64,000 nucleotides of DNA from a virus. Under the pieces are notes generated by a model. It saw nothing but the letters and a program-made list of their open reading frames with translations, had not been told where the DNA came from and ran no database searches. The DNA lies in the IMG/VR virus record IMGVR_UViG_3300039412_000320; one strand, 5' to 3'. The translations under genes were made by a program, and so were the position numbers. Below, piece by piece: positions 2,121 through 64,000 of this stretch; within the stretch, counting starts at the first letter, position 1; every line of letters starts with the position of its first letter.

Positions 2121-2768
2121 ATGTTTGTGTATTTAATATTTAATCGAATAAGCCTTAAGCTATACATCGGTAAGACCACGACATCCAACCTGGGTTTGTA
2201 TCTAAAAAAGAAAATTAGAGACGCTCAAAGGGGAACTTATCCCGGTAGGTCACACCTCTTTTCTGCAATGGAAAAGTACCCATCTACAGCTTGGGGGATA
2301 ATCCCGCTTATCTCAAATCTTACCACTAACGAGGAGCTTTGTTATTGGGAAACGGTTTTAATTAAAGCATTTAATACCCGTTGCCCGGAAGTTGGATACA
2401 ATATCTGTAAAGGTGGAGAAGGATGGACAGGAAGACATTCCGAAGAATCACGAAGAAGGATTGGAGAAGCCACTAGGAATAGACCCGGTCCGTGGCATAA
2501 TAGGCCAATGTCCAAAGAACATAGAAGGAAGCTAGGAGCAACCCATAAAGGTCATCCCAGTGGGATGTTGAATAAACACCACTCCGAGGAATCCCGCAAA
2601 AAGATGAGCAATGCCAAAAAGGGTAAACCCAGCCCTTGGAGGGGGAAACACTTTTCTGCCGAATCCCGTAAAAAGTTAAGTATTTCCCTTAAGGGGAAAC
2701 CATGGACAGAAAGGCGGCGCAAGGCGCAGGAGTTGAAAAGGAGAGCAAGTGAGACCACCAAACTTTAG
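2121..2768 (+). CDS. GIY-YIG homing endonuclease-like protein with NUMOD3 repeats
   Basis: N-terminus 'VYLIFN...LYIGKT' and 'GYNICKGGEG'; C-terminal repeats 'SEESRRRIG', 'SKEHRRKLG', 'SEESRKKMS', 'SAESRKKLS' are NUMOD3-type. A class A-like upstream motif lies at 2087-2110. Confidence 0.75.
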   Translation: MFVYLIFNRISLKLYIGKTTTSNLGLYLKKKIRDAQRGTYPGRSHLFSAMEKYPSTAWGIIPLISNLTTNEELCYWETVLIKAFNTRCPEVGYNICKGGEGWTGRHSEESRRRIGEATRNRPGPWHNRPMSKEHRRKLGATHKGHPSGMLNKHHSEESRKKMSNAKKGKPSPWRGKHFSAESRKKLSISLKGKPWTERRRKAQELKRRASETTKL

Positions 2769-5700
2769 CGTTTGTTTGATTGCAAGAAACGAAGCTCCGA
2801 ACCTCTGGAGAATCCACAAATCACTCAAAGAATTTCAGAAACGTGACGGCGAGGTGGTCCTCGTGGACACTGAGTCTACTGACAACACTCCGGCTGTAGC
2901 TCGTGCTTTAGGCTTCACTGTTTTCGAGGTGGGGGAGAAGTTTATCTTCACCATCCCGGAGAACCTTGCCAAGGCCATCAACACTCAGTTTGTCGTACCG
3001 CCCGAAGCTCCCATTGTCGCCGCTGGCGATAAGCTCTTTGATTATGCCGCCGCCCGCAATTATTCCGCTACCATGGCGAGCAACGATGTGGTATCCATGC
3101 CGGACTGCGATGAGCAATATACCCATCTGGATATCGACGCCATTGAACGCACCATTGACCAAGGGTTCCAGCAGATGGAATTTCACTTCATCTTCTCCCA
3201 CTATCCCAACGGTCAACCCGCTGTTCAGTTCCGGCAATGCAAGATGTACGACCGGCGTATCATGCACTGGCAGGGCATCGTCCATGAGGTTCTGGCGGGA
3301 AACGCCAAGCGCACCTACCTACCGCCCAACGTGCTTCTCTTGGAACACTTCCAAGCCCCGCAGTCACACCGCACCCGGTATCTCGCCGGGCTGTCTCTCG
3401 ATTGCTACCTCAATCAGGACAACGACCGTAACAGCCACTACCTCGGACGAGAGCTTATCTGGAACGGTCATCCCCGGTCAGCCATCAAAGAACTCACTCG
3501 GCATGTCAACATGAACCGTTGGCAACAGGAGCGGGGGCAGTCCATGATTTTCATCGGGGACGCCCACATGCAACTGGGGGAGGATGACAAGGGCATCGAA
3601 TCTTGGCACAAAGCCATCCAAATAGATGATACCCGGCGTGAGCCGTGGCTTCGTCTGGCGGATTACTACTGGAAGAAGAACAATCCGCAGCGGGTAGCCT
3701 GCTATTGTATGGCTGCTTTGGAAATCCCACCTAACGATTGCTATTGTAACGTGGGAGCGCATTACACGTATGAGCCGCATGAAAAACTTTACTGGGCGCT
3801 CTGGTGGCTGGGCGACCGGGAGAGGTCGAAAGAACACTGGAGGAAGGCGTTCGCCTACGACCCGACTAACCCCAAGTATCTTGCCGACAAGCAGTTCTAC
3901 GAGCCGACTAAATATGATTATCAAATGCCCGGAGGAGGTCAAGCCGCAGACGGCGGGGGAATCCAAGGATGGATGACCCACGGCGAGCTTGAATGGTTGT
4001 ACCATCAGGCGCAACGGGAAGAAATCCAAACCATCCTCGAATTGGGTAGCTGGAAAGGCCGGTCCACCCATGCTTTGCTTTCCGGCTTGAACGGCAAGGG
4101 CCTGCTTACCGCCGTAGATACATGGAAAGGCTCGGTTGACCCCCGTGACCAAACCAACGCCATGGCAAAGCAGGAGGATGTCCTCGGCGAGTTCAAGAAA
4201 AACGTCGGGGAGTTCAAGAACCTCGAAATCTGTCAGATGGAGAGCGCAGCGGCAGCGGAGAAGTTCCGGGCCGAGGGACGCACGTTTGACATGGTGTTTA
4301 TCGACGCCGGTCACACTTATGAGGAAGTCAAGAGAGATATCGAACTCTGGCGTCCACTTGCCAAGGTCATTCTATCCGGGCATGATTATACTAATGTTTG
4401 GGAAACCGTTAGAAAAGCAGTCGATGAGCACTGTGGGCGGACCTACCATGCCGAGAGCATTTGGTATTTGCCCGTTGAACCATTTCCACAAATCAAAGGT
4501 ACTTATTTCAAATCCCACGCTGAGATGCAGGAGAAGATTGAGAAAGGTGAGCCATTCTCCTATGTCAAGTGGAATGACGGGGAACAGCAGTGTATCGAAG
4601 GCGTAGAGGGGGCAACGTGTGACGGGCAGGCGTATAGTTTCGAGCTTAACTTAGCACTTAGGAAAGCTTACAACTTTCTCACCACTCTCCAGAACGTATA
4701 CATTAGCAACTGGAAAGAGTGGTTAGATGATAACCTCAATGACGGCGGTATACTTCTGCATAGGGAGAAGCGAGACCTCCAGCCCCTACACGATTTCTAC
4801 AAGGCCATAAAGGAGAGCGGAGTACAGAAGTTCCTCATCGCCCCGGCGAAATTGCAGGGCGCTGCCGACATGCTCAACGCTGAACTTATTGAGGTTCCCG
4901 AGCATGATGCATGGAGCAAGTATAAGGAAATCAAGGATGCCATGCTATCCAAGGTTCATACCCATGGCATCTTTCTGTTCAGTTGCGGGCTGATAAGCAA
5001 GGTGCTCATCGCTGATGCCCTCACGGCGGAGAAGGACATTTGCTGTCTCGATACCGGCAGCAGCTTTGACCCTATTTTCCTCGGACAAACCCAGACTCTA
5101 CAGGCTCCGCAAAGAGAGCTTCTGGACCTGTATGCCGACCTGCTCCCCGAGCAAAAGCAGTATATTCCCAAGAGCATTTTCACCATCTGGTTGTCAGAGA
5201 AAGAAGGCTTGCCGCCGCTCGTGGAGAAGTGTGTCAAGAGCCAGCAGATTCCCGGCTACGAACACAAGGTCTTGGGCCTAACCGATTGCCCCAAGGGTAT
5301 CCCCTATCTGGATGCCGCACTAGCTGCCAAGAAGTGGGTCAAAGCAGCGGACTACCTGCGCATTTGGTGGTTGAAGGAGTACGGCGGCATCTATGTCGAT
5401 TCTGACATGGAAATCCTGCCGGACAGGAACTTCAACCGTTTGCTTGGCAACTCGTTTTTCGTCTGCCGGGAAGACAACGGTTTTATCGCCAATAGTCTCA
5501 TCGGGGCGAAGAGGGGTCATCCCATCCTTGCGGAACATCTCGCCGAAGTGGGGGCCAAGTTCAAGGGTGATGATGACTACATTTTCCAAGCAGCACAGGA
5601 AATCCTCACCCCGAGGATAAGCAGTGCAGCACCCTCAGACCTGACAGTCAAAACTCTTCCCGCTCATGTCTTCTGTCCCTATAACCACCAAAATGGGGAG

Positions 5701-6417
5701 ATTGATGTACGGGATGACACCGTGGCTTTCCACCACTTTGCCAAAGCGTGGATTAAGGAAGACTACACTCGGGACTTCCTTCCCCGTGTCGCCGTCCTAA
5801 TACCCTCGCTGGGACGCCCGGAGGGCCTCCAGAAGTGTTTGGAGTCCGTAGACCACCTCTACTACCCCAAGCACTTGATTAAGGCATTCGTGGACGAAGG
5901 CGAGGGCACGGTAAGCCAGAAGGTCAACCGGCTCGCCGCCGCCAACCCGGACTTTGACGCTTACGTGTATGCGGCCAATGATATGGAGTTCGACCCGTGG
6001 TGTGTGTACCGGGCAGTCAAAGAAGGTCAGGGCAACCCACCCAAGGCTCACCCCTTCGAGACCCCGCCGCATTATCCCTTCGTCAAGGGATTGGTATCCT
6101 TCAACGCCGGACCGGTGTACCCGGATGAGGGGAACATCTGCGAACATTTCCTCATCAGCCGGGACTTGTACTTGAAGCTGGGGGAAATTTTCTCCGAGAA
6201 GTTTCACCACGTTGGCGTGGATAACCTTCTGTGGGTAAAGGCCAAGAAGCTTGGTCAGGTACTTCACTCTGAAACGGCAAAGATAACCCACCACCATTTC
6301 AGCAAGACTCACGTGATGGATGCTATCTACGAGAAGGGTTGGTCACAGGTGGATTCCGACCGGGCTATCCTCGCTCAAGAACTCAAAAAATTGGAAGAAA
6401 CTCCCACTGCAACGTAA
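2749..6417 (+). CDS. 1222-aa multidomain glycosyltransferase/methyltransferase (GT2 - TPR - class I SAM MTase - GT32-like DXD - GT2)
   Basis: GTG start preceded by AAGGAGAG. Domains read in order: 'FSVCLIARNEAP...EVVLVDTESTDNT...DCDE' (GT2); TPR-like helices; 'ILELGSWKGRSTHALL...VFIDAGHTYEEV' (class I SAM MTase); 'IWLSEKEG...AADYLRIWWLKEYGGIYVDSDMEIL' (Gly_transf_sug/DXD); 'AVLIPSLGRPEGLQKCLESV...KAFVDEGEG' (second GT2). Confidence 0.75.
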   Translation: MRPPNFSVCLIARNEAPNLWRIHKSLKEFQKRDGEVVLVDTESTDNTPAVARALGFTVFEVGEKFIFTIPENLAKAINTQFVVPPEAPIVAAGDKLFDYAAARNYSATMASNDVVSMPDCDEQYTHLDIDAIERTIDQGFQQMEFHFIFSHYPNGQPAVQFRQCKMYDRRIMHWQGIVHEVLAGNAKRTYLPPNVLLLEHFQAPQSHRTRYLAGLSLDCYLNQDNDRNSHYLGRELIWNGHPRSAIKELTRHVNMNRWQQERGQSMIFIGDAHMQLGEDDKGIESWHKAIQIDDTRREPWLRLADYYWKKNNPQRVACYCMAALEIPPNDCYCNVGAHYTYEPHEKLYWALWWLGDRERSKEHWRKAFAYDPTNPKYLADKQFYEPTKYDYQMPGGGQAADGGGIQGWMTHGELEWLYHQAQREEIQTILELGSWKGRSTHALLSGLNGKGLLTAVDTWKGSVDPRDQTNAMAKQEDVLGEFKKNVGEFKNLEICQMESAAAAEKFRAEGRTFDMVFIDAGHTYEEVKRDIELWRPLAKVILSGHDYTNVWETVRKAVDEHCGRTYHAESIWYLPVEPFPQIKGTYFKSHAEMQEKIEKGEPFSYVKWNDGEQQCIEGVEGATCDGQAYSFELNLALRKAYNFLTTLQNVYISNWKEWLDDNLNDGGILLHREKRDLQPLHDFYKAIKESGVQKFLIAPAKLQGAADMLNAELIEVPEHDAWSKYKEIKDAMLSKVHTHGIFLFSCGLISKVLIADALTAEKDICCLDTGSSFDPIFLGQTQTLQAPQRELLDLYADLLPEQKQYIPKSIFTIWLSEKEGLPPLVEKCVKSQQIPGYEHKVLGLTDCPKGIPYLDAALAAKKWVKAADYLRIWWLKEYGGIYVDSDMEILPDRNFNRLLGNSFFVCREDNGFIANSLIGAKRGHPILAEHLAEVGAKFKGDDDYIFQAAQEILTPRISSAAPSDLTVKTLPAHVFCPYNHQNGEIDVRDDTVAFHHFAKAWIKEDYTRDFLPRVAVLIPSLGRPEGLQKCLESVDHLYYPKHLIKAFVDEGEGTVSQKVNRLAAANPDFDAYVYAANDMEFDPWCVYRAVKEGQGNPPKAHPFETPPHYPFVKGLVSFNAGPVYPDEGNICEHFLISRDLYLKLGEIFSEKFHHVGVDNLLWVKAKKLGQVLHSETAKITHHHFSKTHVMDAIYEKGWSQVDSDRAILAQELKKLEETPTAT

Positions 6418-6453: not shown

Positions 6454-8748
6454 ATGGCACTTGTCTGTGTATTCAATCCGGTTTCCAAACTCATCGACTC
6501 TGTAGAGGGACTCGTCGTCACCTTCGTAGGGACGTGGAGTATCAATGCCGTCTATCTTGGGGGCAATGTTGCCAGTTACGGCGGCTCCCTCTGGATATCC
6601 CTCCTTGACAACAACTCAGGAAATCAGCCCGACATTTCTCCCACATGGTGGGCGCAGTATGCCTCCTCCGGTGCCACGGGACCAACAGGACCCGGAAATT
6701 TTACAGGCTATACCGGACCTACCGGACCCAGCGGATACACAGGTTATACCGGCCCCGGTAATTTCACGGGTTACTCAGGGTACACGGGACCAAGCGGTTA
6801 TACTGGACCCAGTGGATATACAGGCTACACTGGTCCCGGAAATTTTACTGGTTACTCTGGGTACACGGGATTTTCTGGTCCCACCGGTTACTCAGGATTC
6901 ACCGGGTACACCGGCCCCGGTAATTTCACGGGTTATACCGGACCCATAGGTCCCTCTGGTTACACCGGTTACTCTGGCTACACCGGCCCGACCGGGCCGG
7001 GTAATTTCACGGGTTTCTCAGGATATACAGGATACACCGGTTATACCGGAGAAGCGGGAACGGCGGCGGCTACCGGAGCTACAGGTTACAGCGGGTATTC
7101 CGGCTACACCGGCCCCACGGGGCCGACTGGACCGGGCAATTTTACCGGTTACACCGGATACACTGGACCCAGCCACACAGGCTACACTGGTTACACAGGA
7201 CCCACGGGTTCCACCGGGGCTACAGGTTACACAGGTTTTACAGGACCCGGTTCCTTTACAGGTTACACAGGTCCAACCGGCTATTTGGGCTACACTGGAC
7301 CTTCCGGTTACTCGGGTTACACGGGATATACAGGGCCAGTCGGTCCTGTTGCTTATGGTGAGATGAGCATTCAAACGAATGCCACTGCCACAACCCTCAC
7401 CACGCAAAACACTTGGTATCAAGTAGTCAACTGGACATTAGGCAGTCTTTTCCAGAACATGACGGGAAATACCTCGTCCCCCGCTACACTGACCTGCACC
7501 ACCGGTCTAGCAGCCTTAACTTGCAGGGTACATTTTACCGGCAGCGTAACCGTCTCCGCTGGTTCTCAGACTTATCAACTGTCTGTATACAAAAATGGTT
7601 CTCAGTTGGTTGACCAGACAGTTAACATTACCTCCAACGGTGGTGGTGCCCCTGCTCTGACTTACCCCGTCTCCTTGTCGGGACTCGATACTATGGCGAA
7701 CAACGATACGTTTGCTATCTTTGCTCGTTGCACCACGTCCAACGCCGTTTCTCTAACCGTCACTCAAGCCAACTTTAACATCGCTACCACTGGTATTGGA
7801 CCGAGTGGACCTACAGGCTACAGCGGTTACACCGGCTATACTGGTCCGGGTAATTTCACGGGTTATACTGGTTACACAGGTCCTAATATCACTGGTCCAA
7901 CCGGACCCACAGGCCCCGGAAATTTCACGGGTTATACCGGAGCCACGGGTTACTCAGGACCAACTGGTTACTCAGGATACACTGGACCCACGGGTTATAC
8001 CGGCTACACAGGTTACACGGGACCGCAGGGAGCTTCTGCTTATGGCGAAATGACCATCGCCAATGAGACTGTGGTTCTTACCAATCAGGGAACATGGTAT
8101 CAGCTAATCAACTGGACTACTGGACAGCTTTCCAACATGACTGGGAATACCAGCGGTACTCAAACTTTGACCTGTACCACGGGTCTGCCCGCTATCGGTT
8201 GCAATACTATCTTCACCGGCTCATTAATCATAAGTACTGCCAATCAGGCCTATCAACTGGCGGTGTTTAAGAATGGCTCTATCCTCACCGAGCACGAGAT
8301 TGATGTTCTCGAAGATAGCACCACGGAACAGGTAGCCTTTGCCATCTCCGGTATCGACAGCATGGCAGATGGAGACTACTTTGCTATCTTTGCTCGCTGT
8401 ACTACCATTGGCTCCGTTACTCTTACGATTAACCAAGGGAACTTCAACATCATCTCCATTGGACCGGGAGCTATCGGGCCTACGGGTCCAGTGGGACCTA
8501 CCGGACCAACGGGTCCCGGTAATTTTACGGGGTATACAGGCCCCCTTGGTGCGACCGGACCGGTCAGCGGCTCCCCCATTACTCCCGTGCCCTTTGCTTC
8601 CCTCGGGTCAGCGGTGGGACTGCCGGGGCGTATCGCAGCGGTCAACAACAGTGGTGTAAACACTTGGGGCGGCACTGCCAATGGCTCCGGTGGTTTCACC
8701 GTGTTGGTTTGGAGCAACGGCTCACTGTGGACCGTCATAGGTTCTTAG
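6454..8748 (+). CDS. Collagen-like repeat fibre protein with two C1q/TNF-like (BclA C-terminal-like) globular domains
   Basis: Long runs of G-Y-T/G-P-T/G-P-S triplets punctuated by a recurring 'PGNFTG'; the collagen run plus ~140-aa beta-rich head ('AYGEM(S/T)I...TWYQ(V/L)(V/I)NWT...LTCTTGL...YQL(S/A)V(Y/F)KNGS...FAIFARCTT') occurs twice; the C-terminus is Gly/Pro-rich. Confidence 0.75.
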
Positions 8749-8793: not shown

Positions 8794-9672
8794 ATGTTTA
8801 TCTATTTAATTGTCAACCGAGAGACTGGTAAATACTACATTGGTCAGCACAAGGGGAAAGACTTAAAAAAGTACTTTCAAACCAAGTTATCGGATGCTAA
8901 ACATAATCGGGGAGGAAAGTCTCACCTATATGCTTCTATGCGGAAATATCCCTTACCTTCCTCTTGGTCTATACATGCCCTCCGCTCCGATATCCAGACA
9001 AAAGAAGAGCTTGACCAAACCGAAAAAGATTTCATTAGGTTCCTGCGGTCACAGGACCCAGAATACGGTTATAACATCTGTCGTGGAGGGGAAGGACATA
9101 CCGGACCGCTTTCTCAAGAATCCGTCAAAAAAATATCGGCTTCTCTTAAAAAGTTATGGGGTGGTTCCAAGGGTAAAGAACTCCGAAGAATAAGCGGGGA
9201 AGCATCTGACAAAAGATGGGCGCAACCGGGAAAAAAGGAACGGGCATCAGAAACAATGAGGGAAATCTGGCAGCAGCTAAAACACAGAGAACATGTTTTA
9301 GGTAAACTCAGAAACTACTGGTCAGGGATATCCGATAGTAAAAAGGCTGAAATCAGCAGTAGAATTTCTGCTACCTTGATGGGTCACTTCGTATCCGAAA
9401 AATCCCGAGTTAAAATGTCTTTAGCTCTTAAGGGAAAGCCTAGTTGGAATAAAGATAAAAATTTATCTAGGGAAACAAAGAACAAAGTATCCGTCTCGAT
9501 AACCAAACTTTGGGAAGACCCGCTATATAGGGAGCACATGGTTATAGCCGCTTCTCATCCTAAGCCATATCTTAGAAAGAGATTTTGTAAACATGGACAT
9601 GATACAAATGTTTGTGGAAGATACCCTAATGGCAACTGTCGAGGCTGCCATTTGAGATTACCTCATCTTTAG
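8794..9672 (+). CDS. GIY-YIG homing endonuclease (paralog family A) with NUMOD repeats and C-terminal Cys/His cluster
   Basis: 'MFIYLIVNRETGKYYIGQHKG...YGYNICRGGEG'; C-terminus 'CKHGHDTNVCGRYPNGNCRGCH'. Confidence 0.8.
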   Translation: MFIYLIVNRETGKYYIGQHKGKDLKKYFQTKLSDAKHNRGGKSHLYASMRKYPLPSSWSIHALRSDIQTKEELDQTEKDFIRFLRSQDPEYGYNICRGGEGHTGPLSQESVKKISASLKKLWGGSKGKELRRISGEASDKRWAQPGKKERASETMREIWQQLKHREHVLGKLRNYWSGISDSKKAEISSRISATLMGHFVSEKSRVKMSLALKGKPSWNKDKNLSRETKNKVSVSITKLWEDPLYREHMVIAASHPKPYLRKRFCKHGHDTNVCGRYPNGNCRGCHLRLPHL

Positions 9673-10389: not shown

Positions 10390-10448
10390 GATACTATATT
10401 TCCCCACAGAAAAGAAACTTCCCATTGTATTGGTAGGGGGAAAATTAA

Positions 10449-11435
10449 ATGGGAAGTAAGGGTACTTGTGGTGTCTATGTAATATGGGTAAAGGACGATA
10501 ACGGAAATGAAAAGCCCTATATAGGCAGCAGCAAATGGATGGAACATAGAAGGAAACAACATCTTCAAGCACTAGCTGTTGGAAAGCACCGTAACTATAA
10601 ACTTCGGCGGGCGTGGCGGGAGTACGGACCGCAAGCGTTTAGGTTTGAGGTCCTGTTTCCTTGTGAAGAGAATGAGAGATTTGTCTGGGAAGAGTTGATG
10701 ATTCGCTTCCTTGATTCTTTTCACAATGGATACAATCTAACCCCCAATGTCATGGACCTGTCAGTGATTCCCCGCTGCAACAGACCCCTGTCTGACAAAA
10801 CCAAGAAAAAATTATCTGAATTGGCATATAAAAAGTATGAGGCCGCCTCGGAGCATGAAAAGACATCTAAGTCGTTAAAGGAGTTCTGGGGTAACGCAGA
10901 AAACCGAGAATGTCTGTTAGCACCGTACCGTACTCCCGAATATAGGGCCAAGTGTAGTTGTCTTACCACCTTGTCTTGGCAGGATGCGGTCATAAGGACA
11001 CGAAGAACGGACGGTCTCAAGAAAGTTATGGCTACGACAGCTTACCGCCATAATCTTTCAGCTTCCTTGACGGGAAAGAAGAAATCGGCACAACACGCCG
11101 AGAATATAGCATTGGGGGCCAAGAAAAAATATAGAAACCCTGCGGAGAGGAAAAAAACCAGCGACTCCCTCCATACTCCCGATGCGCACGCCAAGCTATC
11201 CGAGAAATCCTTTGTGGCTTGGCAAAACCCGATTTATAGAAACCACCTAAGCGAATGCCGTCGTCTCCAATGGCTTAAACCGGGCGTGCGGGAAACAATG
11301 GGGGAAAAAATAGCGGCTGGTTTGGCCAAGCCCGGAGTACTTGAAAAACGAAACCAAAAAATCAGTGAAGGATTAAAGCGGGCGTGGGCGAGAAAAAAAC
11401 TTCTAAGGGTTAAAAGTATAGAAAACTCCCCATGA
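10449..11435 (+). CDS. GIY-YIG homing endonuclease (I-TevI/Seg-like) with NUMOD repeats
   Basis: 'GVYVIWV...YIGSS...RRKQH...FEVLF...GYN'; a class A-like motif lies at 10416-10440. Confidence 0.8.
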   Translation: MGSKGTCGVYVIWVKDDNGNEKPYIGSSKWMEHRRKQHLQALAVGKHRNYKLRRAWREYGPQAFRFEVLFPCEENERFVWEELMIRFLDSFHNGYNLTPNVMDLSVIPRCNRPLSDKTKKKLSELAYKKYEAASEHEKTSKSLKEFWGNAENRECLLAPYRTPEYRAKCSCLTTLSWQDAVIRTRRTDGLKKVMATTAYRHNLSASLTGKKKSAQHAENIALGAKKKYRNPAERKKTSDSLHTPDAHAKLSEKSFVAWQNPIYRNHLSECRRLQWLKPGVRETMGEKIAAGLAKPGVLEKRNQKISEGLKRAWARKKLLRVKSIENSP

Positions 11436-11463
11436 AATCAAATTTAGGGCGTATTATACTTGT

Positions 11464-54636: not shown

Positions 54637-55425
54637 ATGCACAAATTTATAGATATGAGAAATAGACCAGAGTTATTGCCCCAAGATTGTATATGGATTG
54701 TTTTAAGTGATTCACCTCAAGGTGGAGGGAAGAGGGGTAAGCCGTATAAGTGGTATTGTCAGTGTTCTGGGTGTGGGGTTAAACGCTGGATTGTGGGGTT
54801 GAATTTACGTTCTGGTAGAACACTAGGTTGTAGACGATGCTGGGGTAAGCGGATGTCTCAAAGGCAGCTTATTGATATGAGGATTCAGCCGTTACCCCCA
54901 GAGTGTCCTTGGGAAATTTTGGATGAACCTCCTAAAACTATCCAACAGCAACGAGGTAAGGCATATCTTTGGCACGCACGATGCCGCATTCATGGAGTGA
55001 AGTCTTGGATTCGTATAAGGAAAGACAGGAACAGCGGTTGTTACCTTTGCGGGCGGCATCTTCAATCTTTAGGTCGTCAGAAACGGCCCCTTGAGTGGAT
55101 GATAGCGCAAATTCGTAGAAGTAAAAAATGGGAGGGATTAACTTATGAGGAACTTGTTACTATAACCGAATCTAAAACATGCCACTATTGTGATGAACCC
55201 CTAATTTGGAATGCTTTATCCCATAAGGGATGTGGGGCGAACAATAGGACAAACCTTGATAGGAAAGACTCTTCAATTGGATATCGAAAAGATAACTTGG
55301 TTCCGTGCTGCCCTAAATGCAATTGCGGAAAATCAAACCGGTTTACATATGAACAGTGGGTAGAAATTGGACAACTCATAAAGGCAATGAGAGAACACCA
55401 CCCCTATACATTTACTCCCGCTTAG
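54637..55425 (+). CDS. HNH homing endonuclease with N-terminal repeated Cys modules
   Basis: 'CHYCDEPLIW...NNRTNLDRKDSSIGYRKDNLVPCCPKCNCGK'; SD GGGAGG before ATG 54637. Confidence 0.7.
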   Translation: MHKFIDMRNRPELLPQDCIWIVLSDSPQGGGKRGKPYKWYCQCSGCGVKRWIVGLNLRSGRTLGCRRCWGKRMSQRQLIDMRIQPLPPECPWEILDEPPKTIQQQRGKAYLWHARCRIHGVKSWIRIRKDRNSGCYLCGRHLQSLGRQKRPLEWMIAQIRRSKKWEGLTYEELVTITESKTCHYCDEPLIWNALSHKGCGANNRTNLDRKDSSIGYRKDNLVPCCPKCNCGKSNRFTYEQWVEIGQLIKAMREHHPYTFTPA

Positions 55426-55526: not shown

Positions 55527-56798
55527 TTACATGGGCGGCGTCCAAGCGACCCAATCGAACAGCTTGTGTTCCGGGTGAACAAGGAAGCTGACCTGCGATG
55601 GGCGGGCGTGCCGTCCACAGCCGTGGTCAAATTCCGATGTGCCGCTGAGACTTCCGTTGATGAGAATGTTGCCGGATACAATACCGGGGACATGCCAGTG
55701 ACCACAGGAGATATAGTCGAAGCCGAGCTTCGCCATGTCTTCCATTTCCTGCCGCCAAGCATCCAGCATTGCCTGCATCCGCTTGATGGCTTCCCGGCCC
55801 CGCTCACGTTCGAGGCCATAGAAGGGAATGCCCATCCATGCCTTTACGGTGTCGCCGTGTTCGATGAGGAACTTCACACCCACCATATCGACCACATGCT
55901 TCATGCCCTCGGTAGTGACGATGTCAATGTTCTCGTGATTCTGGAGATAGGCATTGGCGATTTCGTACACCACGTGGCTCATGGAGTTGCTGGACTTCTG
56001 CTTGGATTGCGGCTTCTGTAACAGCCGTCCGTGGTTGTCCGCCCCAATCTCCACAAGGGTTATCTTGTCGAAATGGGGAGCGAAAGTGGAGACGGTCTGT
56101 GCAAGCAGTTTGCCCGCTTGCGTTGCCTGTACGGGGAGGGGGAACTCATTCGTGCGGCGGAGTTCTTCGTGGATGTCGCCGGATACCCAGTCACCTTCTC
56201 CGAAGACATACAGGTTGGGGATGTTGAAGGTAGTTCGGTGTGTATCCACCCAGCCGAGGAACTTCTGCGCAATGTACTTCATACGTTCCTGTGCTATATC
56301 CCAGTTGTAAATACCGAATCCCTCGGTCTCCTCGGGCTTGATGATTTCCCCAATATGCCAGTCGGAGAGTTTGATGCACGCAGCCATGTCGCTGCCCGCA
56401 CCCATGGGTGATTCAAACTCCACGGGCGGTAACGGGTCCAAGCCAGTGATGGCGTCCACAATGGCGTCGGTCATCTCTTGCCAGTAGCCCTGCTCCTCAT
56501 GTGCTTTCCTGACTTCGTTTCTGAGACGGCTGTTGTCCCGGCGCAGATATACTTCCCTCGGCTCTTCCGGGGGTGGAGCAACTTTGGCGGCTTTGACGGC
56601 GGGTTGGGCAACCTTGCGGGCGTGCTTTATGTTGGCTGCATCAAGAAGGGCCTCGAAGGTGGGGAAATACGCAGCCCATCGGTCCTTAAGTGGGCTGTTG
56701 TTACGAAAGAAATCACGACTAACTGGCTGGCTTCCATTGTTGGATAGCCTCTGCGCCTCCAGAATAAAATCTTCCCTCGTAGGCTTCTCTGCACTCAT
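55527..56798 (-). CDS. SbcD/Mre11-like calcineurin-type phosphoesterase (nuclease)
   Basis: 'KLSDWHIG', 'GDWVSGD', 'GADNHG', 'CGHWH'; start set at ATG preceded by AGGAGG (reverse complement of 56799-56806). Confidence 0.55.
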   Translation of the reverse strand: MSAEKPTREDFILEAQRLSNNGSQPVSRDFFRNNSPLKDRWAAYFPTFEALLDAANIKHARKVAQPAVKAAKVAPPPEEPREVYLRRDNSRLRNEVRKAHEEQGYWQEMTDAIVDAITGLDPLPPVEFESPMGAGSDMAACIKLSDWHIGEIIKPEETEGFGIYNWDIAQERMKYIAQKFLGWVDTHRTTFNIPNLYVFGEGDWVSGDIHEELRRTNEFPLPVQATQAGKLLAQTVSTFAPHFDKITLVEIGADNHGRLLQKPQSKQKSSNSMSHVVYEIANAYLQNHENIDIVTTEGMKHVVDMVGVKFLIEHGDTVKAWMGIPFYGLERERGREAIKRMQAMLDAWRQEMEDMAKLGFDYISCGHWHVPGIVSGNILINGSLSGTSEFDHGCGRHARPSQVSFLVHPEHKLFDWVAWTPPM

Positions 56799-56945
56799 AA
56801 TCCTCCTGTGGCGGTGTTTGTTGGCGTTATCACTACTGATGGGGGTGATAGTTGGCGTTTTGGGTACATTCCATGCACTCGCCGTTACATCCCCTTGATG
56901 GAGCATTCTCTGCGCATGATGTCTAATACTACAATTTCCCGATTC

Positions 56946-58103
56946 TTATTGTTCTTCTTTTTGATTTATAATACCACTAATTTGGTGGTCCCATCTAGTC
57001 TGGGGCCATCGTAAGCGTTTAGCCCTTGCCATAGAAGAACATTTTCTGCAAACGCTCCCCCGCTCCTCCATTTGTTTGCATAACCAAGCATATTTATAGT
57101 GCAAAGAAACACCACAAACCGGGCAGTGGCGTTCCGTTTTAGTATATAAGGGGGCACATCTATTCTTTGCCGCACAACTACCACACAGCCCGTTAGTCTT
57201 ATCAGCTATTTTACAGTGGTACTTATTCTTATAGATTAGTCTTTTTTTACATTGGGGACAAAGGCGGGATTTTATGTTTGGCGATACCGGGCTACCATCT
57301 GGCGAATATCCGGTACGGGCATGAATCAAGTCCCCATTTTGGTACGCCGGGTCTGTCACTCTTACTCGTTTGTAGACACCATCTTTATCTATTGTTAGAA
57401 CATATCCTTTGTTTACATGGGTGAGTTCCCCGGTTATCAGCCGTGGGTCATCACAGGTGGTATCAATCACAATCCCAGCCTTGTCCTTCGTTGTTATTCT
57501 GCCCTTTCGTACATGCACTAACTCCCCGGACAAATATCGAGGGTCATCTTTTCTTACTTTGAAGCGGTTTCCGAGAGAGTCTTTAACATTGACCGTGTAT
57601 CTCGCAAAGTGCGTTAGGCTACCGTCTTTAAGGCGGGGGTCATTTGTTTCTACATGGTATATATCCCCATTTTTATCCTTTGCGGCAACCTTTCCTCTCA
57701 TTGTTTTACCGCACTGGTCCTTAACCACACTAACCGCCCTTTCGTACTCTTGAAGATATTCGTCTTCTATTTTAATCTTTCCCATTTTGCTCATCATTTT
57801 CCATGCATAGGCGGTAGCTTGGCATTTGACGGCCCTGAATAAAAGGTAGTGAGCCTTGAAGTGGTCAAATGGGCTTATTTTAACTGAATTCCACGGATGA
57901 CCGACTCTACTCTTGTATTCCGGGAACATAGATTTAGGGAGGATGTGGTGCCAGTTTCCTTTTTCTCTTTCTGGTAGTTTTGACTTTTGGATGTGGTCTA
58001 AGTATGCCCAAAAGGCGTCTCGGTCAACCATCGGATATCGTTCTATAAATATGTCTATGAGTTCCTTCATTGGGAATCCTCTAATAAGGAGTTCGGTAAT
58101 CAT
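56946..58103 (-). CDS. HNH-like homing endonuclease with four tandem 'DPRLxxGxLxH' repeats and C-terminal Zn fingers
   Basis: 'NWHHILPKS...N...FDHFKAH'; repeats 'DPRLKDGSLTHFARYT', 'DPRYLSGELVHVRKG', 'DPRLITGELTHVNKG', 'DPAYQNGDLIHARTG'; 'CPQCKK...CGSC', 'CPVCG...CRKC'. Confidence 0.45.
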   Translation of the reverse strand: MITELLIRGFPMKELIDIFIERYPMVDRDAFWAYLDHIQKSKLPEREKGNWHHILPKSMFPEYKSRVGHPWNSVKISPFDHFKAHYLLFRAVKCQATAYAWKMMSKMGKIKIEDEYLQEYERAVSVVKDQCGKTMRGKVAAKDKNGDIYHVETNDPRLKDGSLTHFARYTVNVKDSLGNRFKVRKDDPRYLSGELVHVRKGRITTKDKAGIVIDTTCDDPRLITGELTHVNKGYVLTIDKDGVYKRVRVTDPAYQNGDLIHARTGYSPDGSPVSPNIKSRLCPQCKKRLIYKNKYHCKIADKTNGLCGSCAAKNRCAPLYTKTERHCPVCGVSLHYKYAWLCKQMEERGSVCRKCSSMARAKRLRWPQTRWDHQISGIINQKEEQ

Positions 58104-59651: not shown

Positions 59652-60503
59652 ATGTTCATATACCTTATCGCTAATCACATCACAGGAAAATACTACATCG
59701 GTCAGCATAAGGGTAGAGACCTCCGCAAATATCTTCACAAAAAATTTTGGGAAGCGGAACATGGTTTAGGCGGGTCCTCCCATCTTTACGCCGCTATAAG
59801 AAAATATGGAAGAAGTAGTTTCAGCATTCATGCTCTCCGTTCGGATATCCAAACAAAAGAAGAGTTAGACCAAGTCGAAAAGGATTTTATTATTTTTCTA
59901 AAAGCCCAAGACCCTGAATATGGTTACAACATCCGTCGAGGAGGAGAGGGATTTACCTCAGAAGAAGCAAAGGAAATTGCCAAAAATCGACTAGCCGACC
60001 CCACATTTATTACCAGATTAACTATGGCGTTGAAAGAAGCATGGAAAGACCCTGAAACTCAAGCCAAACATTCCGAGTCTATCAAAAAATTATGGCAAGA
60101 TTCGGAGTTCCGTGACAAAGTTGTTAAAAAACTGAGGAGCCCAGAAGTAAGAGATAGAAAATCTAAGGCTAATAGGAAAAGATTTTCTACTTATGAGGCT
60201 CGTACTAAACAAGCCAAAGCAGTAAATGCGGGGTGGTCTGATTTAGAGCTTCGCACCAGACAATCTGAGTTAGTTAAGAAGCTATGGTCAGACCCCCAAA
60301 CTCGATATAAAATGATGGAGGGGGTTAAGAAACGAGCAGCTACCATAAGTTTGAATGGTAAAAAAACTATGTCCAAGCCAGGACACCTGTCTTATATGAC
60401 TAAAAAAGGGCATTGCCAACGCTGGAACATCAACCGTGGCAAACCTTGTACCTGCGGATATCATCCTTTGCTTATGCTCAAGGTAAATGAGAGAACCACT
60501 TAA
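59652..60503 (+). CDS. GIY-YIG homing endonuclease (paralog family A) with C-terminal C..W.I.RGKPC.CG.H module
   Basis: 'MFIYLIANHITGKYYIGQHKG'; 'CQRWNINRGKPCTCGYH'; class A motif at 59631-59646. Confidence 0.8.
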   Translation: MFIYLIANHITGKYYIGQHKGRDLRKYLHKKFWEAEHGLGGSSHLYAAIRKYGRSSFSIHALRSDIQTKEELDQVEKDFIIFLKAQDPEYGYNIRRGGEGFTSEEAKEIAKNRLADPTFITRLTMALKEAWKDPETQAKHSESIKKLWQDSEFRDKVVKKLRSPEVRDRKSKANRKRFSTYEARTKQAKAVNAGWSDLELRTRQSELVKKLWSDPQTRYKMMEGVKKRAATISLNGKKTMSKPGHLSYMTKKGHCQRWNINRGKPCTCGYHPLLMLKVNERTT

Positions 60504-60581: not shown

Positions 60582-63500
60582 ATGAGTTCACTCAATCCAT
60601 TGCTTCAACCGACAGCCGGGGCATCCGGGGAAGCGCCCCCCATGACAGTTCGTTTGGAAATCCATGATTCCCACCGAGGAGAGCTTTCCGGCAGGGTAGA
60701 AGCTTGGCTGGAGGGTGGCGGGGTATGGGCGACCGGTCCAGACGGCAAGGAGACCCAACAGGGAACACGTATTGGCTACGTGGACTTTTCGGAGTACGAT
60801 AACGAAATTTGGATAAAGTACGTTCATGTTCAGCCGGAATACCGTCGCCGTGGTGTGGCGACCGCCATGTACGAGAAGCTCAAGGCAGAGTTTCCCGGTG
60901 AGCAAATTGTTAGCAGCGGCACCACGGGAGAGGGTGGGGAACTTAGGAAGTCTTTGAAGGAGCGGGGAGTCATTGCCGCCGATGAGGCTTTGGACTACGG
61001 AGAGGTCATCAATGTGCTTCACAGCCTCATGCCGGATGTGGACCCCAGCCTCCCGGAGCCACAAATCAGGATTGCCGACTATACCCGCTCCAAGTGGCTA
61101 GGCCGGACCGAGTGGCGGCACGGGGAACCCAATACCACTATCGTCCTTCAAAAAGCCATTTGTCATGATGAGGAGACCCTCCGCCGTATCATTGCCCACG
61201 AGCTTGTACACCACGAACAGATGCTTAAGGTGTGGTCAACCTACCCCGGAGGAAAGGTCTTCGATAGGATAGTGAGAATCGAAGGTGGGCATGGTGGGGT
61301 CTTTAAGGAGATAGCCAACCGTTGGAACGCCAAACACGGCAAAGACTTCATCACAAATAAATCTGATGAGAGTTACGAGAAACAGTTTACCGAGCGTCCC
61401 TTCTTTGTTTTAGTCTCTCGTACTAGCTGGGGTTCTCCCCGTTGGCAGGCGTCTATCCGCATTTCTGGCAAACAGAAAATATGGATGAGCGGCAAGAACA
61501 TGGAAGAGTACCGGCTGACTCAGACCACCGACCAAGATTTCGTTGATGCCCCTAATATTGGTTCTAGGCATTGGGAGTACCCCCACAAGGATAACCATGG
61601 TTTGATTCTCGCTGCCGAGGCATTGATGAAAATGCCAGACCTCCGTTTGCAATGGGATGAAAAGCCCCCGGCAAGTGTTGCCGAGGAGCGTGCCAAGAGG
61701 CAGGAGATTTATGAGAAAATGAGGGAGTGGTCTCGGTCCCGGCGACAGAAGAAAACCGAGAAGTGGTTTCAAGACCTCAAAGACAGGTCGGATGCTTACC
61801 AGCAAAGTAAGGCATCCGCTGTGAATACTCAGCCCACTCCCGAGGTCTTGGATGAGGCTCGTGCTCTGCGCACGGAGTTGCGCATGGGGGATACCACCGC
61901 CGTGAGGGGTCAGGGTAACTGCGGATTCATTGCTGACTCCGCTTCTAAAAAGTATGGTTGGGATGTTTATGCCGGGCTGTACTTGGAAGACAACGGCAAG
62001 CAAATCGACCATGTTTGGAACGTCTCGGAAGACGGAACCATCATAGACATCACCCATGACCAGTTTGGACCACCCGATATCAACGTGGTCAAGCCCGGTC
62101 AGCCGGGGTACGATGACTACCACGCTTACTGCTGGCAGTATCTCCCAGAGGATGAAGCGAACGCCTGTCCCATCTGTGGTAATGGAGTAGTGAACGAGGA
62201 GTCCCAGCCTGATGAAGATATGGAAGAACTGAAAAAGACTTCCTCTCAGAAGGTGGGGTTGGATGCTATCAGGAAACAGGCAAGGGTGAGTCAAAATCTC
62301 ACTTGGCTAGTCAACTATCTCACCATGAGCAGGCGGGATATGGGTGAGGGATATTCACTATCGGATGAGTATGTCAGGCGGTATGATGAGCTTAATGACC
62401 GCTATGGGATAACATGGAAAGACAGCTTTCGATATATGGAAACGGTAAGACAGAAACAGCCGATAAGCGTCAACCAAATTGAGAAGATTGACATAGTAGA
62501 CAAGTCTATAAAAACAGCAGACTCCCACAAGCAGACGCCCCATAGGGAGAATGACTTCGAGAGCTTGAGTGAAGGCGAGGGGCTAGAGGGATACGCTAAC
62601 CAACCGGAATGCGAGGGTGGTAATAAGGCGATTATTCCTATGAACGTTCTGGAGGAGCAGGCCAAGCTTACGATGACCGCCTCTCCTGTTGCTCACTTCC
62701 CGTCGTGGGATGAGTTCGTTAAGAAAGAAGGCGGGATTGAGAAGATTGTCAATGGGTTTGGCTCCAGTTGGGACCAGTGGGAACCCTATGACCGGGCGGA
62801 GACGGAAGCTTTCGATGCTCTGGAGCAGAAGGAGCAACAGGAATATCTGGAGCGTCGGGCCTATGAAGATTTGGAGAACCGGTACTATGATGTTCTTGGC
62901 GACCACTCCATGTGGTCCTTCCCATTGGATGTCTACCGGGTAGTTACCCTCAAAGACATCAGGGGATTAAAGCGCCGGGGTATCGGGGTTTTCTGGTCAC
63001 GGGATGAAAATGCCGCCGAAGCACACTGGGGAAACTTTGGACCGGGGTATCAGAAATACATCATTCATGCACAAGTGCAGGAGCAGGATGTTGACTGGGA
63101 GGCAACCGTCTGGGTGAACCTTGACCCCTCCCTTGGAGAAGAGGAAAAGGAGATACGCTTAAAGGAGGGAACACACCCGCAGATACTCGGTTGGAAGGGA
63201 ACCAGTGAAAATTCATGGCATCAACCCCCGGCAGCTTGGAAGAATGTAACCGCTTCTTCCTCGTGGGTTATCCCCAAGGAAGCCGCCACGGTGGGGTATG
63301 TCTATCATGTGACCTATGCCAACCGACTTGAGGATATCATCTGGCAGGGGTTGGAACCCGGTCATCCCCCGGTCATCGGTGAGAATTACGGTTGGCACAC
63401 TGAGGGGCGTATTTTCTTCTCTGACCCACGGGGCGTGGGGTTCTGGGTCAGTAGAGTGGAGGAGTGGGCTTACCACAACTCAGATAGCCCCGTTTCTGAT

Positions 63501-63839
63501 GGCATGATTCCCGTAGTCTTGCGCATCAAGGAGTACAAACGTTACGGGTTTGAGGAAGATGAATATGGAACGGGTGATGCTGGTGCCGAAGCCTTCTTTA
63601 CCCAAAAGACCATCCCCGCCAGTCGGATAGAGATGTGGGATGGAAAGGTCTGGCGCAAACTCAATGAGGATTTGCTTGAGGAACTTGGCCTTGTACGCTT
63701 TGGCATGAATGAACCTGACCCATCTTGGGACCTTAACGGAACATTGAGGGAAAAGCAGGAAGAGAAGGCAGAGAAAGAGGGGTACTTGGATGAGCAATTT
63801 GGTCCTTTAATGAATCCTAGGTTTTCTAATGAAAGTTAA
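60582..63839 (+). CDS. 1085-aa polyvalent protein: GNAT acetyltransferase-like N-domain + HExxH metallopeptidase-like + Cys-protease/transglutaminase-like segment + large C-terminal region
   Basis: 'IWIKYVHVQPEYRRRGVATAMYEKL' (GNAT motif A); 'RRIIAHELVHHEQ'; 'GQGNCGFIADSA...DHVWN'. Confidence 0.45.
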   Translation: MSSLNPLLQPTAGASGEAPPMTVRLEIHDSHRGELSGRVEAWLEGGGVWATGPDGKETQQGTRIGYVDFSEYDNEIWIKYVHVQPEYRRRGVATAMYEKLKAEFPGEQIVSSGTTGEGGELRKSLKERGVIAADEALDYGEVINVLHSLMPDVDPSLPEPQIRIADYTRSKWLGRTEWRHGEPNTTIVLQKAICHDEETLRRIIAHELVHHEQMLKVWSTYPGGKVFDRIVRIEGGHGGVFKEIANRWNAKHGKDFITNKSDESYEKQFTERPFFVLVSRTSWGSPRWQASIRISGKQKIWMSGKNMEEYRLTQTTDQDFVDAPNIGSRHWEYPHKDNHGLILAAEALMKMPDLRLQWDEKPPASVAEERAKRQEIYEKMREWSRSRRQKKTEKWFQDLKDRSDAYQQSKASAVNTQPTPEVLDEARALRTELRMGDTTAVRGQGNCGFIADSASKKYGWDVYAGLYLEDNGKQIDHVWNVSEDGTIIDITHDQFGPPDINVVKPGQPGYDDYHAYCWQYLPEDEANACPICGNGVVNEESQPDEDMEELKKTSSQKVGLDAIRKQARVSQNLTWLVNYLTMSRRDMGEGYSLSDEYVRRYDELNDRYGITWKDSFRYMETVRQKQPISVNQIEKIDIVDKSIKTADSHKQTPHRENDFESLSEGEGLEGYANQPECEGGNKAIIPMNVLEEQAKLTMTASPVAHFPSWDEFVKKEGGIEKIVNGFGSSWDQWEPYDRAETEAFDALEQKEQQEYLERRAYEDLENRYYDVLGDHSMWSFPLDVYRVVTLKDIRGLKRRGIGVFWSRDENAAEAHWGNFGPGYQKYIIHAQVQEQDVDWEATVWVNLDPSLGEEEKEIRLKEGTHPQILGWKGTSENSWHQPPAAWKNVTASSSWVIPKEAATVGYVYHVTYANRLEDIIWQGLEPGHPPVIGENYGWHTEGRIFFSDPRGVGFWVSRVEEWAYHNSDSPVSDGMIPVVLRIKEYKRYGFEEDEYGTGDAGAEAFFTQKTIPASRIEMWDGKVWRKLNEDLLEELGLVRFGMNEPDPSWDLNGTLREKQEEKAEKEGYLDEQFGPLMNPRFSNES

Positions 63840-63868
63840 CTTTTCAACCCATCTATAGGAGGATATGG

Positions 63869-64000
63869 ATGGGCAGAAAATACGAAAAGGGTAACATTCC
63901 TTGGAATAAGGGGTCAGAGCTTTCTAGTGACCACCGAAGAAAAATTAGTGAATCCCATAAGGGAATCAAGGTAATTCGGGGACACTCAAAGGAGGAAGAG
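63869..64000 (+). CDS. 3'-truncated ORF with NUMOD3-type motif (homing-endonuclease-associated DNA-binding module)
   Basis: SD TAGGAGGA; 'NIPWNKGSELSSDHRRKISESHKGIK'; class A-like motif at 63838-63862. Confidence 0.45.
   Translation, partial: MGRKYEKGNIPWNKGSELSSDHRRKISESHKGIKVIRGHSKEEE

Follow-up and report, generated by a model that had tools for sequence, protein, structure and literature searches.

How does a phage genome come to hold a stretch in which nearly a third of the genes resemble homing endonucleases? The question is raised by 64,000 nucleotides (nt) of viral DNA, IMG/VR record IMGVR_UViG_3300039412_000320, the whole of which we call the window. Genes for homing endonucleases (HEs) are thought to drive mosaicism and marker exclusion among phages and to initiate genetic isolation between them, and most of the evidence comes from T4 and ICP1. 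The window has 21 intact HE-like genes among ~66 called (32%), which occupy ~16 kb or ~25% of its nucleotides. We consider it likely that an exceptional number of selfish HE genes (HEGs), anciently diverged, have built up here through lateral homing. It is an extreme natural case of a known phenomenon, with no new mechanism; in this account we infer the specificity of cleavage, the occurrence of homing and benefits, if any, of the marker-exclusion kind.

The window is part of an uncultured soil jumbo phage with a genome of more than 338 kb, known from metagenomes, and comprises the replication and recombination module of that phage plus some structural genes. It is ~50% GC, with coding nearly all on the plus strand. 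The nearest isolate is the Acidobacteriota phage Tunturi_5, a 309-kb jumbo myovirus from tundra soil (PMC11924767); the family-A DNA polymerase of the window (30959-34654) is 44% identical to its counterpart in this Tunturiibacter phage. A megablast search with 20 kb of the window against the INPHARED cultured phages gave no match. No tRNA genes were found in the 64 kb, and a scan with Rfam at the gathering threshold returned no family match and no introns.

Census and genomic setting

Twenty of the HE-like genes are free-standing and intergenic, and one is an intein. By class, there are nine GIY-YIG genes, seven HNH genes (four of them PacI-like paralogues), three genes of the Endonuclease VII (EndoVII) family, one Vsr-like PD-(D/E)XK gene and one LAGLIDADG intein. 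The initial annotation had proposed about 22 HE genes, about ten of them GIY-YIG; the high density stands, with the totals corrected to 21 and nine, the latter from PHROG matches, family alignment and AlphaFold2 (AF2) models. Its other classes and its estimate of roughly one gene in three agree with ours. Four HNH genes match the PacI profile and three were assigned by PHROGs and Pfam HNH; the EndoVII genes score 64-74 bits with Pfam Endonuclease_7 (cut-off 23.6); the AF2 C-terminal domain of the PD-(D/E)XK-like gene matches Vsr and I-Bth0305I; and the intein is recognised by Pfam Hom_end_hint, LAGLIDADG_3 and Hom_end. A check with hidden Markov models (HMMs) for assignment to non-nuclease families left all 21 in nuclease families with HE precedents, and PHROGs, Pfam, PDB profiles and AF2 with Foldseek place all 20 free-standing genes in GIY-YIG, HNH, EndoVII (beta-beta-alpha-metal) or Vsr-like PD-(D/E)XK. 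None of the 21 has a frameshift or premature stop, and neither family HMMs nor tblastn with the window's own HE proteins (E <= 0.01) found further copies or HE remnants in the window. The genes are as follows, with E denoting E-values.

2121-2768, plus strand: GIY1, between tail-fibre-like and giant glycosyl/methyltransferase genes; NUMOD3 repeats (Pfam NUMOD3 64 bits); PHROG_314 E 2.4e-19
8794-9672, plus strand: GIY2, MFIYLIVNH subfamily with NUMOD3; PHROG_314 E 6e-20
10449-11435, plus strand: GIY3, a divergent GIY-YIG gene just upstream of the helicase gene; PHROG_314 E 4.8e-17, PHROG_7168 E 4e-15
14646-15215, plus strand: HNHa1, PacI-like HNH (beta-beta-alpha-metal); PHROG_1035, PHROG_3118
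16013-16780, plus strand: GIY4, MFIYLIVNH subfamily; C-terminal CxRWxIxRGKPCxCGxH zinc knuckle; PHROG_314 E 6e-16
18155-19321, plus strand: Vsr-like PD-(D/E)XK gene, DUF4379/DUF723 zinc-finger repeats followed by a C-terminal nuclease; PHROG_559 E 8e-55, PHROG_9084 'homing endonuclease' E 6.5e-26
19407-20219, plus strand: GIY5, of a family without Pfam or PHROG match; C-terminal zinc knuckle as in GIY4, GIY6 and GIY9
21047-21742, plus strand: GIY6, MFIYLIVNH subfamily, between a hypothetical gene and the HU gene; PHROG_314 E 5e-16
24646-25410, plus strand: HNHa2, PacI-like HNH just upstream of the RecA/UvsX-like gene; PHROG_374 E 8.5e-24, PHROG_1035 E 1.4e-16
27152-28183, plus strand: LAGLIDADG intein of 344 residues inside the SbcC/Rad50-like ATPase gene (27056-29326), in the Walker-A loop (GPSNKGK|C...THN|S)
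34691-35119, plus strand: EndoVII-1, just downstream of the DNA polymerase gene; Pfam Endonuclease_7 73.9 bits
38365-38955 (likely ATG 38371), plus strand: EndoVII-2, upstream of the clamp-like gene; Pfam Endonuclease_7 65 bits
42156-42905, plus strand: GIY7, MFIYLIVNH subfamily, NUMOD3 50.7 bits, between clamp loader and antiterminator-like genes; PHROG_314 E 3.9e-25
46007-46732, minus strand: EndoVII-3, N-terminal zinc fingers; Pfam Endonuclease_7 64 bits
49504-50175 (likely start 49588), plus strand: HNHa3, PacI-like HNH between glycosyltransferase and methyltransferase genes; PHROG_374 E 6e-19
52182-52913, plus strand: GIY8, a divergent GIY-YIG gene; PHROG_15526 E 6e-19, PHROG_314 E 8e-14
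53582-54235, plus strand: HNHb, H-N-N variant, first of a three-gene cluster; PHROG_4160, PHROG_9443 and PHROG_1271 E 1e-15 to 1e-17; Pfam HNH 19 bits, below cut-off
54126-54581, minus strand: HNHc, canonical HNH; Pfam HNH 35.6 bits (cut-off 21.4)
54601-55425 (likely start 54637), plus strand: HNHa4, PacI-like HNH, member of the HNHa family alignment; PHROG_1035 E 2.5e-8
56946-58103 (likely start 58070), minus strand: HNHd, N-terminal HNH and C-terminal zinc ribbons; PHROG_12434 E 6.7e-32, PHROG_655 homing endonuclease E 1e-17
59652-60503, plus strand: GIY9, MFIYLIVNH subfamily; C-terminal zinc knuckle; PHROG_314 E 4.7e-21, PHROG_7168 E 4e-17

The neighbours of these genes include the helicase, RecA-like, SbcC-like, DNA polymerase, clamp-like, clamp loader and HU genes, together with some of no assigned function. 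Further HE-like genes of the same genome lie outside the window: two GIY-YIG genes in a segment missing at 37.8 kb, and, in the next 10 kb downstream, one more GIY-YIG gene and perhaps a weak PacI-like gene. About 3 kb upstream of the window start we also noted a second intein of the genome, in a 483-residue protein with an HNH_3 endonuclease (L037 351-1802; Pfam Intein_splicing 49 bits, HNH_3 27.9 bits). In total, at least 25 HE-like genes, this intein included, were sampled in ~84 kb.

A density of this kind could in principle be a product of metagenome assembly, through chimeric joins or collapsed paralogues, an explanation to which we give next to no chance. By exact-protein look-ups, the window recurs in many metagenome contigs from JGI, ENA and Logan, of which the longest has 338,351 bp (the protein of 35110-35757 returned short contigs only), and independent JGI, ENA and Logan assemblies from different samples repeat its arrangement gap-free at 99.7-100% identity, except at the junction 37715-37883. 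The paralogues, at ~70-77% DNA identity, are too diverged to mislead assemblers. The junction is the one real case of such an artefact. There, a collapsed 169-nt exact repeat corresponding to portal codons 642-697 has removed at least 10.5 kb from the window, including the portal C-terminus, a 1423-residue protein, the two GIY-YIG genes and others, so that the missing segment adds HE genes and removes none. The open reading frame (ORF) at 35792-37945, called as the portal, is chimeric, with portal codons 1-697 fused to the final 20 codons of a 133-residue ORF. Both ends of the 338-kb contig fall exactly at k=141 unitig limits inside the repeat, and the join looks like a false circularisation. 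HE gene surroundings can break metagenome assemblies.

Two other readings of the assemblies were tried and rejected. The portal gene (717 residues here, 853 in relatives) is not split by an intron or HE, because the break sits in the 169-nt repeat, whose edges are k=141 unitig ends, and other assemblies place at least 10.5 kb there. Differing gene calls among contigs of the same strain do not reflect HE pseudogenisation, since the DNA is identical and the differences come from the gene callers. In the same-strain assemblies L016 and L018 the 169-nt repeat also occurs ectopically, inserted in frame into a small ORF that lies ~490 nt upstream of EndoVII-2 and to which the window joins portal codon 697; in L016 (6702-6870, equal to window 37715-37883) the copy of portal codons 642-697 has a 14-nt overlap, and REL2, the relative described below, has no insertion. 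Templated break repair close to an endonuclease gene might have left this copy as its footprint.

Empty alleles in related phages

The comparison with related phages proposed in the initial annotation had a clear outcome. We sought HE-free alleles at relatives' loci, labelled REL2, REL3, REL4 and L044. REL2 is IMG/VR contig 3300041809_000571 (316,945 bp), of which four overlapping loci were merged into 77.4 kb covering the whole window equivalent; its arrangement was found again in a second sample at 99.95-99.995% identity. REL2 and the window are 92.8% identical in DNA over a 39.5-kb alignment, and their core proteins are mostly 87-100% identical. Even so, REL2 is without a same-position counterpart for the intein and for 19 of the 20 free-standing genes, making 20 of the 21 HE-like genes, and window-derived HMMs with blastp found only two HE-like genes in its 77 kb. 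The sole gene with a same-position orthologue is HNHc, on the minus strand with 74% protein identity and a ratio of nonsynonymous to synonymous substitution (dN/dS) of 0.22; dN/dS was calculated for HNHc and the GIY-YIG catalytic domains.

The junctions are clean and resolved to the nucleotide, with 0-123 nt in REL2 against 463-940 nt in the window, and the inserts lie in the interval between one gene's stop codon and the next gene's promoter or ribosome-binding region. Site lengths in the window and in REL2, respectively, are 734 and 0 nt for GIY6, 833 and 6 for GIY4, 933 and 11 for GIY2, 463 and 24 for EndoVII-1, 923 and 26 for GIY9, 636 and 28 for HNHa3, 787 and 83 for HNHa2, 940 and 93 for HNHa4, and 890 and 122 for GIY7. 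The GIY1 site measures 832 against 147 nt and the HNHd site 1218 against 80 nt, and at GIY8 an 847-nt unaligned window segment faces ~266 nt in REL2. GIY3 (also missing from REL3), GIY5, HNHa1, HNHb and EndoVII-3 have no REL2 counterpart, the EndoVII-2 site in REL2 holds unrelated sequence, and the Vsr-like gene is absent from REL2 and L044. Conversely, 23 window segments of 100 nt or longer fail to align to REL2; 19 hold an HE gene, and the other four are no longer than 300 nt.

More distant relatives, whose RecA or DNA polymerase is 64-73% identical to that of the window, carry one or two HE-like genes each. Where they cover the sites of GIY3, GIY4, DUF723/GIY5, GIY6, HNHa2 and EndoVII-1, they have gaps of 11-471 nt and no HE; the GIY6 and HNHa2 sites are empty in REL3, REL4 and L044, and the GIY4 site in L044. 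In the first 50 kb of Tunturi_5, which hold the equivalent primase-polymerase-portal run, no HE is annotated or was detected. Since the sites are empty in these outgroups, gain in the lineage of the window is the parsimonious interpretation. The reverse history, in which the ancestor carried the load and REL2 shed ~20 HE genes, either through precise deletions or by recombining with HE-less alleles, draws on the HEG life-cycle model, which includes precise loss, and on paralogues that predate the split between the window and REL2. We judge it very improbable, as four increasingly distant relatives are empty wherever they can be compared and many independent losses would be needed.

The initial description of a hotspot invaded by independently inserted free-standing elements is thus well supported by the empty sites of REL2 and of the more distant relatives. 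Strand had been offered as a further sign of independent insertion. The three HE genes named there (EndoVII-3, HNHc and HNHd) do lie on the minus strand; this is uninformative for mobility, because the conserved HNHc is one of them, and two non-HE genes (46790-47374 and 55527-56906) are also on the minus strand.

Sequence next to the HE genes has diverged from REL2 as well. Within 50 nt of an HE gene, just 36% of positions can be aligned to REL2, a share that reaches ~85% beyond 400 nt, and five or six diverged replacement blocks abut HE genes on a background of 92-99% identity. The helicase, which adjoins GIY3, is 57% identical to that of REL2, and a 3.3-kb replacement block (10399-13654) starts with GIY3, with neighbours above 90%. 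The clamp-like protein beside EndoVII-2 is 73% identical, the DUF6011 protein beside EndoVII-3 is 50% identical, the 20231 protein beside GIY5 and GIY6 is 77% identical, and the InPase N-terminus next to HNHd cannot be aligned. The pattern agrees with the published placement of nuclease genes at genetic-exchange boundaries (PMC10055350). Diverged flanks of this kind are expected from co-conversion or from target-site immunity, and are an indirect pointer to homing.

The single metagenome scan yielded only 4 loci, and a search for related loci with the helicase gave no pattern match, a blank that fits the divergence of this gene. REL2-specific ORFs, and the in-frame insertions in the REL2 polymerase and in its homologue of 60582-63839, showed no HE or intein hallmarks. 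The polymerase insertion is of 155 residues (equivalent to window 32608-32734; the L014 polymerase has 1470 residues), and the homologue of 60582-63839 has an extra 885 residues of duplicated domains (equivalent to window 62349-62511).

Nuclease families and other genes

Eight of the nine GIY-YIG genes match PHROG homing-endonuclease families (E 1e-14 to 1e-25), and the window family profile aligns with the whole I-TevI catalytic domain (1LN0, E 5e-6). A leave-one-out HMM built from the other GIY-YIG genes did not recover GIY5, GIY3 or GIY8, so these three were assigned from PHROG matches or from family alignment and fold. GIY3 and GIY8, placed by PHROG matches, have an Arg in roughly the expected region. 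GIY5 has more than 135 unannotated metagenomic homologues, and in an alignment of 41 family sequences residues Y7, Y9, Y20, G22, R27, H31, E71 and N89, the GIY-YIG catalytic set, are invariant. Its AF2 N-terminal domain (predicted local distance difference test score, pLDDT, above 95) has the order beta-beta-alpha-alpha-beta-alpha; the top 11 PDB matches of the model are all UvrC or I-TevI GIY-YIG domains, at E of only 0.15-1, and hhalign against the other GIY-YIG proteins gave E 1.6e-4. By these alignments and models, GIY5 is the putative founding example of a GIY-YIG family (LYRYPHP...YVGQG.KRD..HRSG) without a Pfam or PHROG model.

The MFIYLIVNH subfamily (GIY2, GIY4, GIY6, GIY7, GIY9 and, more loosely, GIY1) shares an N-terminal catalytic domain at 59-80% protein identity, followed by varying C-termini made up of NUMOD3 repeats or the CxRWxIxRGKPCxCGxH zinc knuckle. 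GIY7 and the single GIY-YIG gene of REL2, which follows the portal gene, are 88% identical over the first 300 nt and have different loci and different C-termini, a sign that modules were shuffled or that the gene moved to a new site. The motif GAACTTTCTAA, followed after ~10 nt by TATAGGG, lies 31-35 nt before the start codons of GIY1, GIY2, GIY4, GIY6 and GIY7, and is weaker at GIY9 (59652); it was not found upstream of non-GIY genes. This arrangement suggests a mobile cassette with an expression signal of its own. Separately, GTATTATA stands 15-25 nt ahead of the start codon in many core genes and is a possible phage promoter element. Among metagenomic homologues of GIY7, the 200-residue protein P0133 resembles a two-nuclease fusion, with an N-terminus of MFIYLIVNH type and a C-terminal Endonuclease_7 domain (PF02945).

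The profile of the four-member HNHa family matches PacI (3LDY, E 1.7e-6), its motif being the PacI-type variant with D-R instead of D-H. HNHb reads DH...N...N and HNHd HH...N...H in their sequences, both with PHROG support. The nuclease domain of HNHa1, HNHa2 and HNHa3 also matches the PHROGs 'Srd anti-sigma factor' and 'decoy of host sigma70' (E ~1e-7). The profile of the EndoVII trio matches Hpy99I (E 9e-16) and T4 endonuclease VII (E 2e-9), and DHNH...CN is invariant across the trio, at a pairwise identity of 30-37%. All three EndoVII genes are absent from REL2, REL3, REL4 and L044. As they are dispensable in relatives, they are unlikely to be the essential resolvase of the phage; family and fold match those of T4 gp49, and the role does not. 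The Vsr-like protein, which with GIY5 was the least certain assignment, is a member of a large zinc-finger family (DUF4379/DUF723). Its C-terminal domain (AF2 pLDDT 94.7) matches Vsr (1CW0, E 3.8e-4) and I-Bth0305I (3R3P, E 6.5e-3). Single-sequence PDB searches with 18155-19321, 56946-58103 and 53582-54235 were uninformative, as was a relaxed Pfam scan.

The intein spans residues 33-376 of the ATPase, bounded as C33...HN376|S by an N-terminal Cys and a terminal His-Asn followed by Ser. It has two LAGLIDADG motifs, LVGYWLGDG and LLLAGLLDSDA, and scores above the cut-offs with Pfam Hom_end_hint (55 bits), LAGLIDADG_3 (36 bits) and Hom_end (24 bits). The REL2 SbcC is without the intein and reads GPSNKGKSSIFRAL; SbcC in REL3, REL4 and L044 is intein-less too. 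The element has the sequence features of a LAGLIDADG homing-endonuclease intein, with splicing and cleavage as predicted activities.

The remaining genes of the window include, on the replication and recombination side, those for a DEAD_2-type helicase, HU, RecA-like and SbcC-like proteins, a primase zinc-ribbon protein, DNA polymerase, a clamp-like protein and a clamp loader. Others encode a tail-fibre-like protein, a collagen-repeat protein, the portal, an InPase-family protein, a GNAT/SprT-like giant protein, a DnaJ-domain protein, a glycosyltransferase, a methyltransferase and a 1222-residue glycosyl/methyltransferase. Two of these are unusual accessory or structural genes: 2749-6417, the 1222-residue glycosyltransferase-TPR-methyltransferase fusion, and 6454-8748, whose 764-residue product combines two globular domains with collagen-like repeats of the GYTGP type. 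Between RecA and SbcC lies a small gene for a DUF5658 membrane protein (26754-27059), which is absent from all four relatives examined.

Selection, homing and known systems

The dN/dS of the GIY-YIG catalytic domains is 0.07-0.17, and synonymous divergence (dS) between paralogues is saturated, compared with 0.36-0.47 for the backbone between the window and REL2. From these values, the catalytic domains are under purifying selection, and the paralogues appear functional and are older than the strain split. A recent duplication burst within the genome was rejected, given the saturated dS; the paralogues were probably collected from related phages, not recently duplicated.

By analogy with the intronless homing of the T4 seg and mob genes and with intein homing, an HE-carrying phage and an HE-less relative would infect the same cell, where each nuclease would cut the allele that lacks it, at the site of its own insertion or close by. 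The phage recombination machinery (RecA/UvsX-like and SbcC-like proteins, helicases and probably an Mre11-like protein) would then mend the break from the HE-carrying genome, copying the nuclease gene and flanking sequence into the recipient. The nucleases, probably each with its own target, would have been acquired singly from among a set of related phages. The presence and absence signatures seen here are the same as those used for the HEGs of T4 and ICP1 (PMC10055350; PMC2993671). Marker exclusion would be a plausible benefit.

Several points weigh against accumulation by homing. Cleavage and homing are proposed here by analogy, and the sampled part of the genome is ~84 kb of more than 338 kb. 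As the relative also has HNHc, this nuclease may be a resident and not a mobile one. No HE polymorphism was seen within the strain of the window, every sampled contig carrying the same HE set. Pfam GIY-YIG and HNH scores are sub-threshold for many genes, and several HNH-like genes have no Pfam match. Finally, in the MFIYLIVNH subfamily, 6 of the 21 genes, an invariant Tyr aligns with the catalytic Arg27 of I-TevI, so that canonical activity is not assured. The subfamily keeps both tyrosines, the Glu (E77) and the Asn (N94), with a nearly invariant Arg50 ~23 residues past the Tyr, and may have a variant active site.

The last three of these points would also fit relics of past invasions, unable to cut or move and retained as neutral or simply undeleted. 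This explanation strikes us as quite improbable. The 21 genes lack frameshifts and premature stops, no fragments were found, and dN/dS is 0.07-0.22; the Tyr is itself invariant in the subfamily, as are E77, N94 and R50, which indicates a constrained active site, and GIY5 keeps the full canonical catalytic constellation.

Intact genes kept by purifying selection could instead be domesticated weapons or tools of the phage, maintained by phage-level selection for competitor or satellite exclusion, host DNA degradation, defence evasion or regulation. All 21 ORFs are intact with no remnants by tblastn, purifying selection acts on the GIY-YIG catalytic domains and HNHc, the set is fixed in every sampled contig of the strain, and the PacI-like family has the PHROG anti-sigma and sigma70-decoy matches given above. 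ICP1 Odn and T4 SegB are precedents (PMC10055350; PMC13096335). We nevertheless hold domestication to be unlikely. A 93%-identical relative lives without 20 of the 21 genes, so none of these 20 is essential, and their precise intergenic presence or absence beside conserved genes is the classic HEG signature. Domestication overlaps in part with our preferred explanation, in that selfish spread and competitive benefit can coexist.

Beyond accumulation by homing, we raise a stronger reading only tentatively: that this is possibly the heaviest free-standing HEG load seen in a virus (at least 25 in 84 kb; ~25% of the window), that HEG turnover accounts for every large difference from REL2, and that the load includes nuclease families outside current models. 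The families in question are the GIY-YIG family invisible to Pfam and PHROGs, the invariant-Tyr GIY-YIG subfamily and PacI-like HNH proteins as phage homing elements. One HE-associated block that differs from REL2 also holds the unrelated DUF5658 gene.

With empty and occupied alleles of ~20 sites known to the nucleotide, the system offers ~20 enzyme and target pairs for tests of specificity and co-conversion, and lets the cost or benefit of an extreme HEG load be studied. It is also a source of new site-specific nucleases, most of which annotation by Pfam alone would overlook.

The individual families have well-characterised counterparts. Like PacI (3LDY), an atypical HNH enzyme, the four HNHa proteins share a CxYCG...G(I/L)DR...GY...N...CC..CN..K core; unlike PacI, they have N-terminal zinc-finger-like repeats, are variable phage genes and have no identified partner methyltransferase. 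HNHa3 does lie directly upstream of a gene with an S-adenosylmethionine methyltransferase fold (50159-50821, Pfam Methyltransf_23), which is conserved in REL2 although HNHa3 is absent there. The EndoVII proteins resemble T4 endonuclease VII (gp49) and Hpy99I in above-threshold Endonuclease_7 matches, the DHNH...N motif and zinc-binding cysteines, and differ from the T4 enzyme in occurring as three divergent copies, closer to Hpy99I and none with a REL2 counterpart. The modelled C-terminal domain of 18155-19321 resembles I-Bth0305I (3R3P), a Vsr-like PD-(D/E)XK phage HE, whereas its N-terminal DUF4379/DUF723 zinc-finger run and its free-standing position, not in an intron, set it apart. As in I-TevI (PDB 1LN0/1MK0), the GIY and YIG tyrosines, Glu75 and Asn90 are kept in the GIY family profile, and GIY5 also keeps the equivalents of Arg27 and His31; the MFIYLIVNH subfamily differs in its Tyr at the Arg27 position, and the window genes are free-standing, not intron-encoded. 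Intron-borne HEs find no sign here: the flanking genes are intact single ORFs, colinear with HE-less alleles, and Rfam gave no match.

At the level of whole genomes, LIMEstone1 has 14 HEs amounting to 10% of its 152 kb (PMC3296691), and Jug jumbo phages average ~5 HEs per 360-400 kb, plus introns (PMC12880540). The window shares with ICP1 and LIMEstone1 variable gene presence, closeness to essential genes, in-genome paralogues and diverged blocks abutting nucleases (PMC10055350), and differs in its higher local density. T4 has 15 HEGs, 11% of its coding sequence, T6 has 11, RB16 10 and T2 one (PMC2993671; PMC10055350). The proposal that the density here exceeds that of T4 holds for the absolute count and for the window (21 in 64 kb against 15), with a local load of ~25% of sequence against 11% of T4 coding sequence; it is a comparison of a window with a whole genome and does not extend genome-wide, since a >338-kb genome with no HEs elsewhere would come close to T4 in density. 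In cultured phages, the nearest homologues of the window GIY-YIG proteins are Seg-like, at no more than 30% identity. The window adds PacI-like HNH, EndoVII-like and Vsr-like classes to those of T4, has no introns detectable by Rfam, and its homing is something that we infer. Like the T4 seg and mob genes, its GIY-YIG and HNH genes are free-standing and intergenic, lie next to conserved replication, recombination and structural genes, vary between close relatives and join a catalytic domain to NUMOD or zinc-finger modules for DNA binding. The pair formed by the HE-rich window and HE-poor REL2 (21 against 2) mirrors that of T4 and T2 (PMC2993671).

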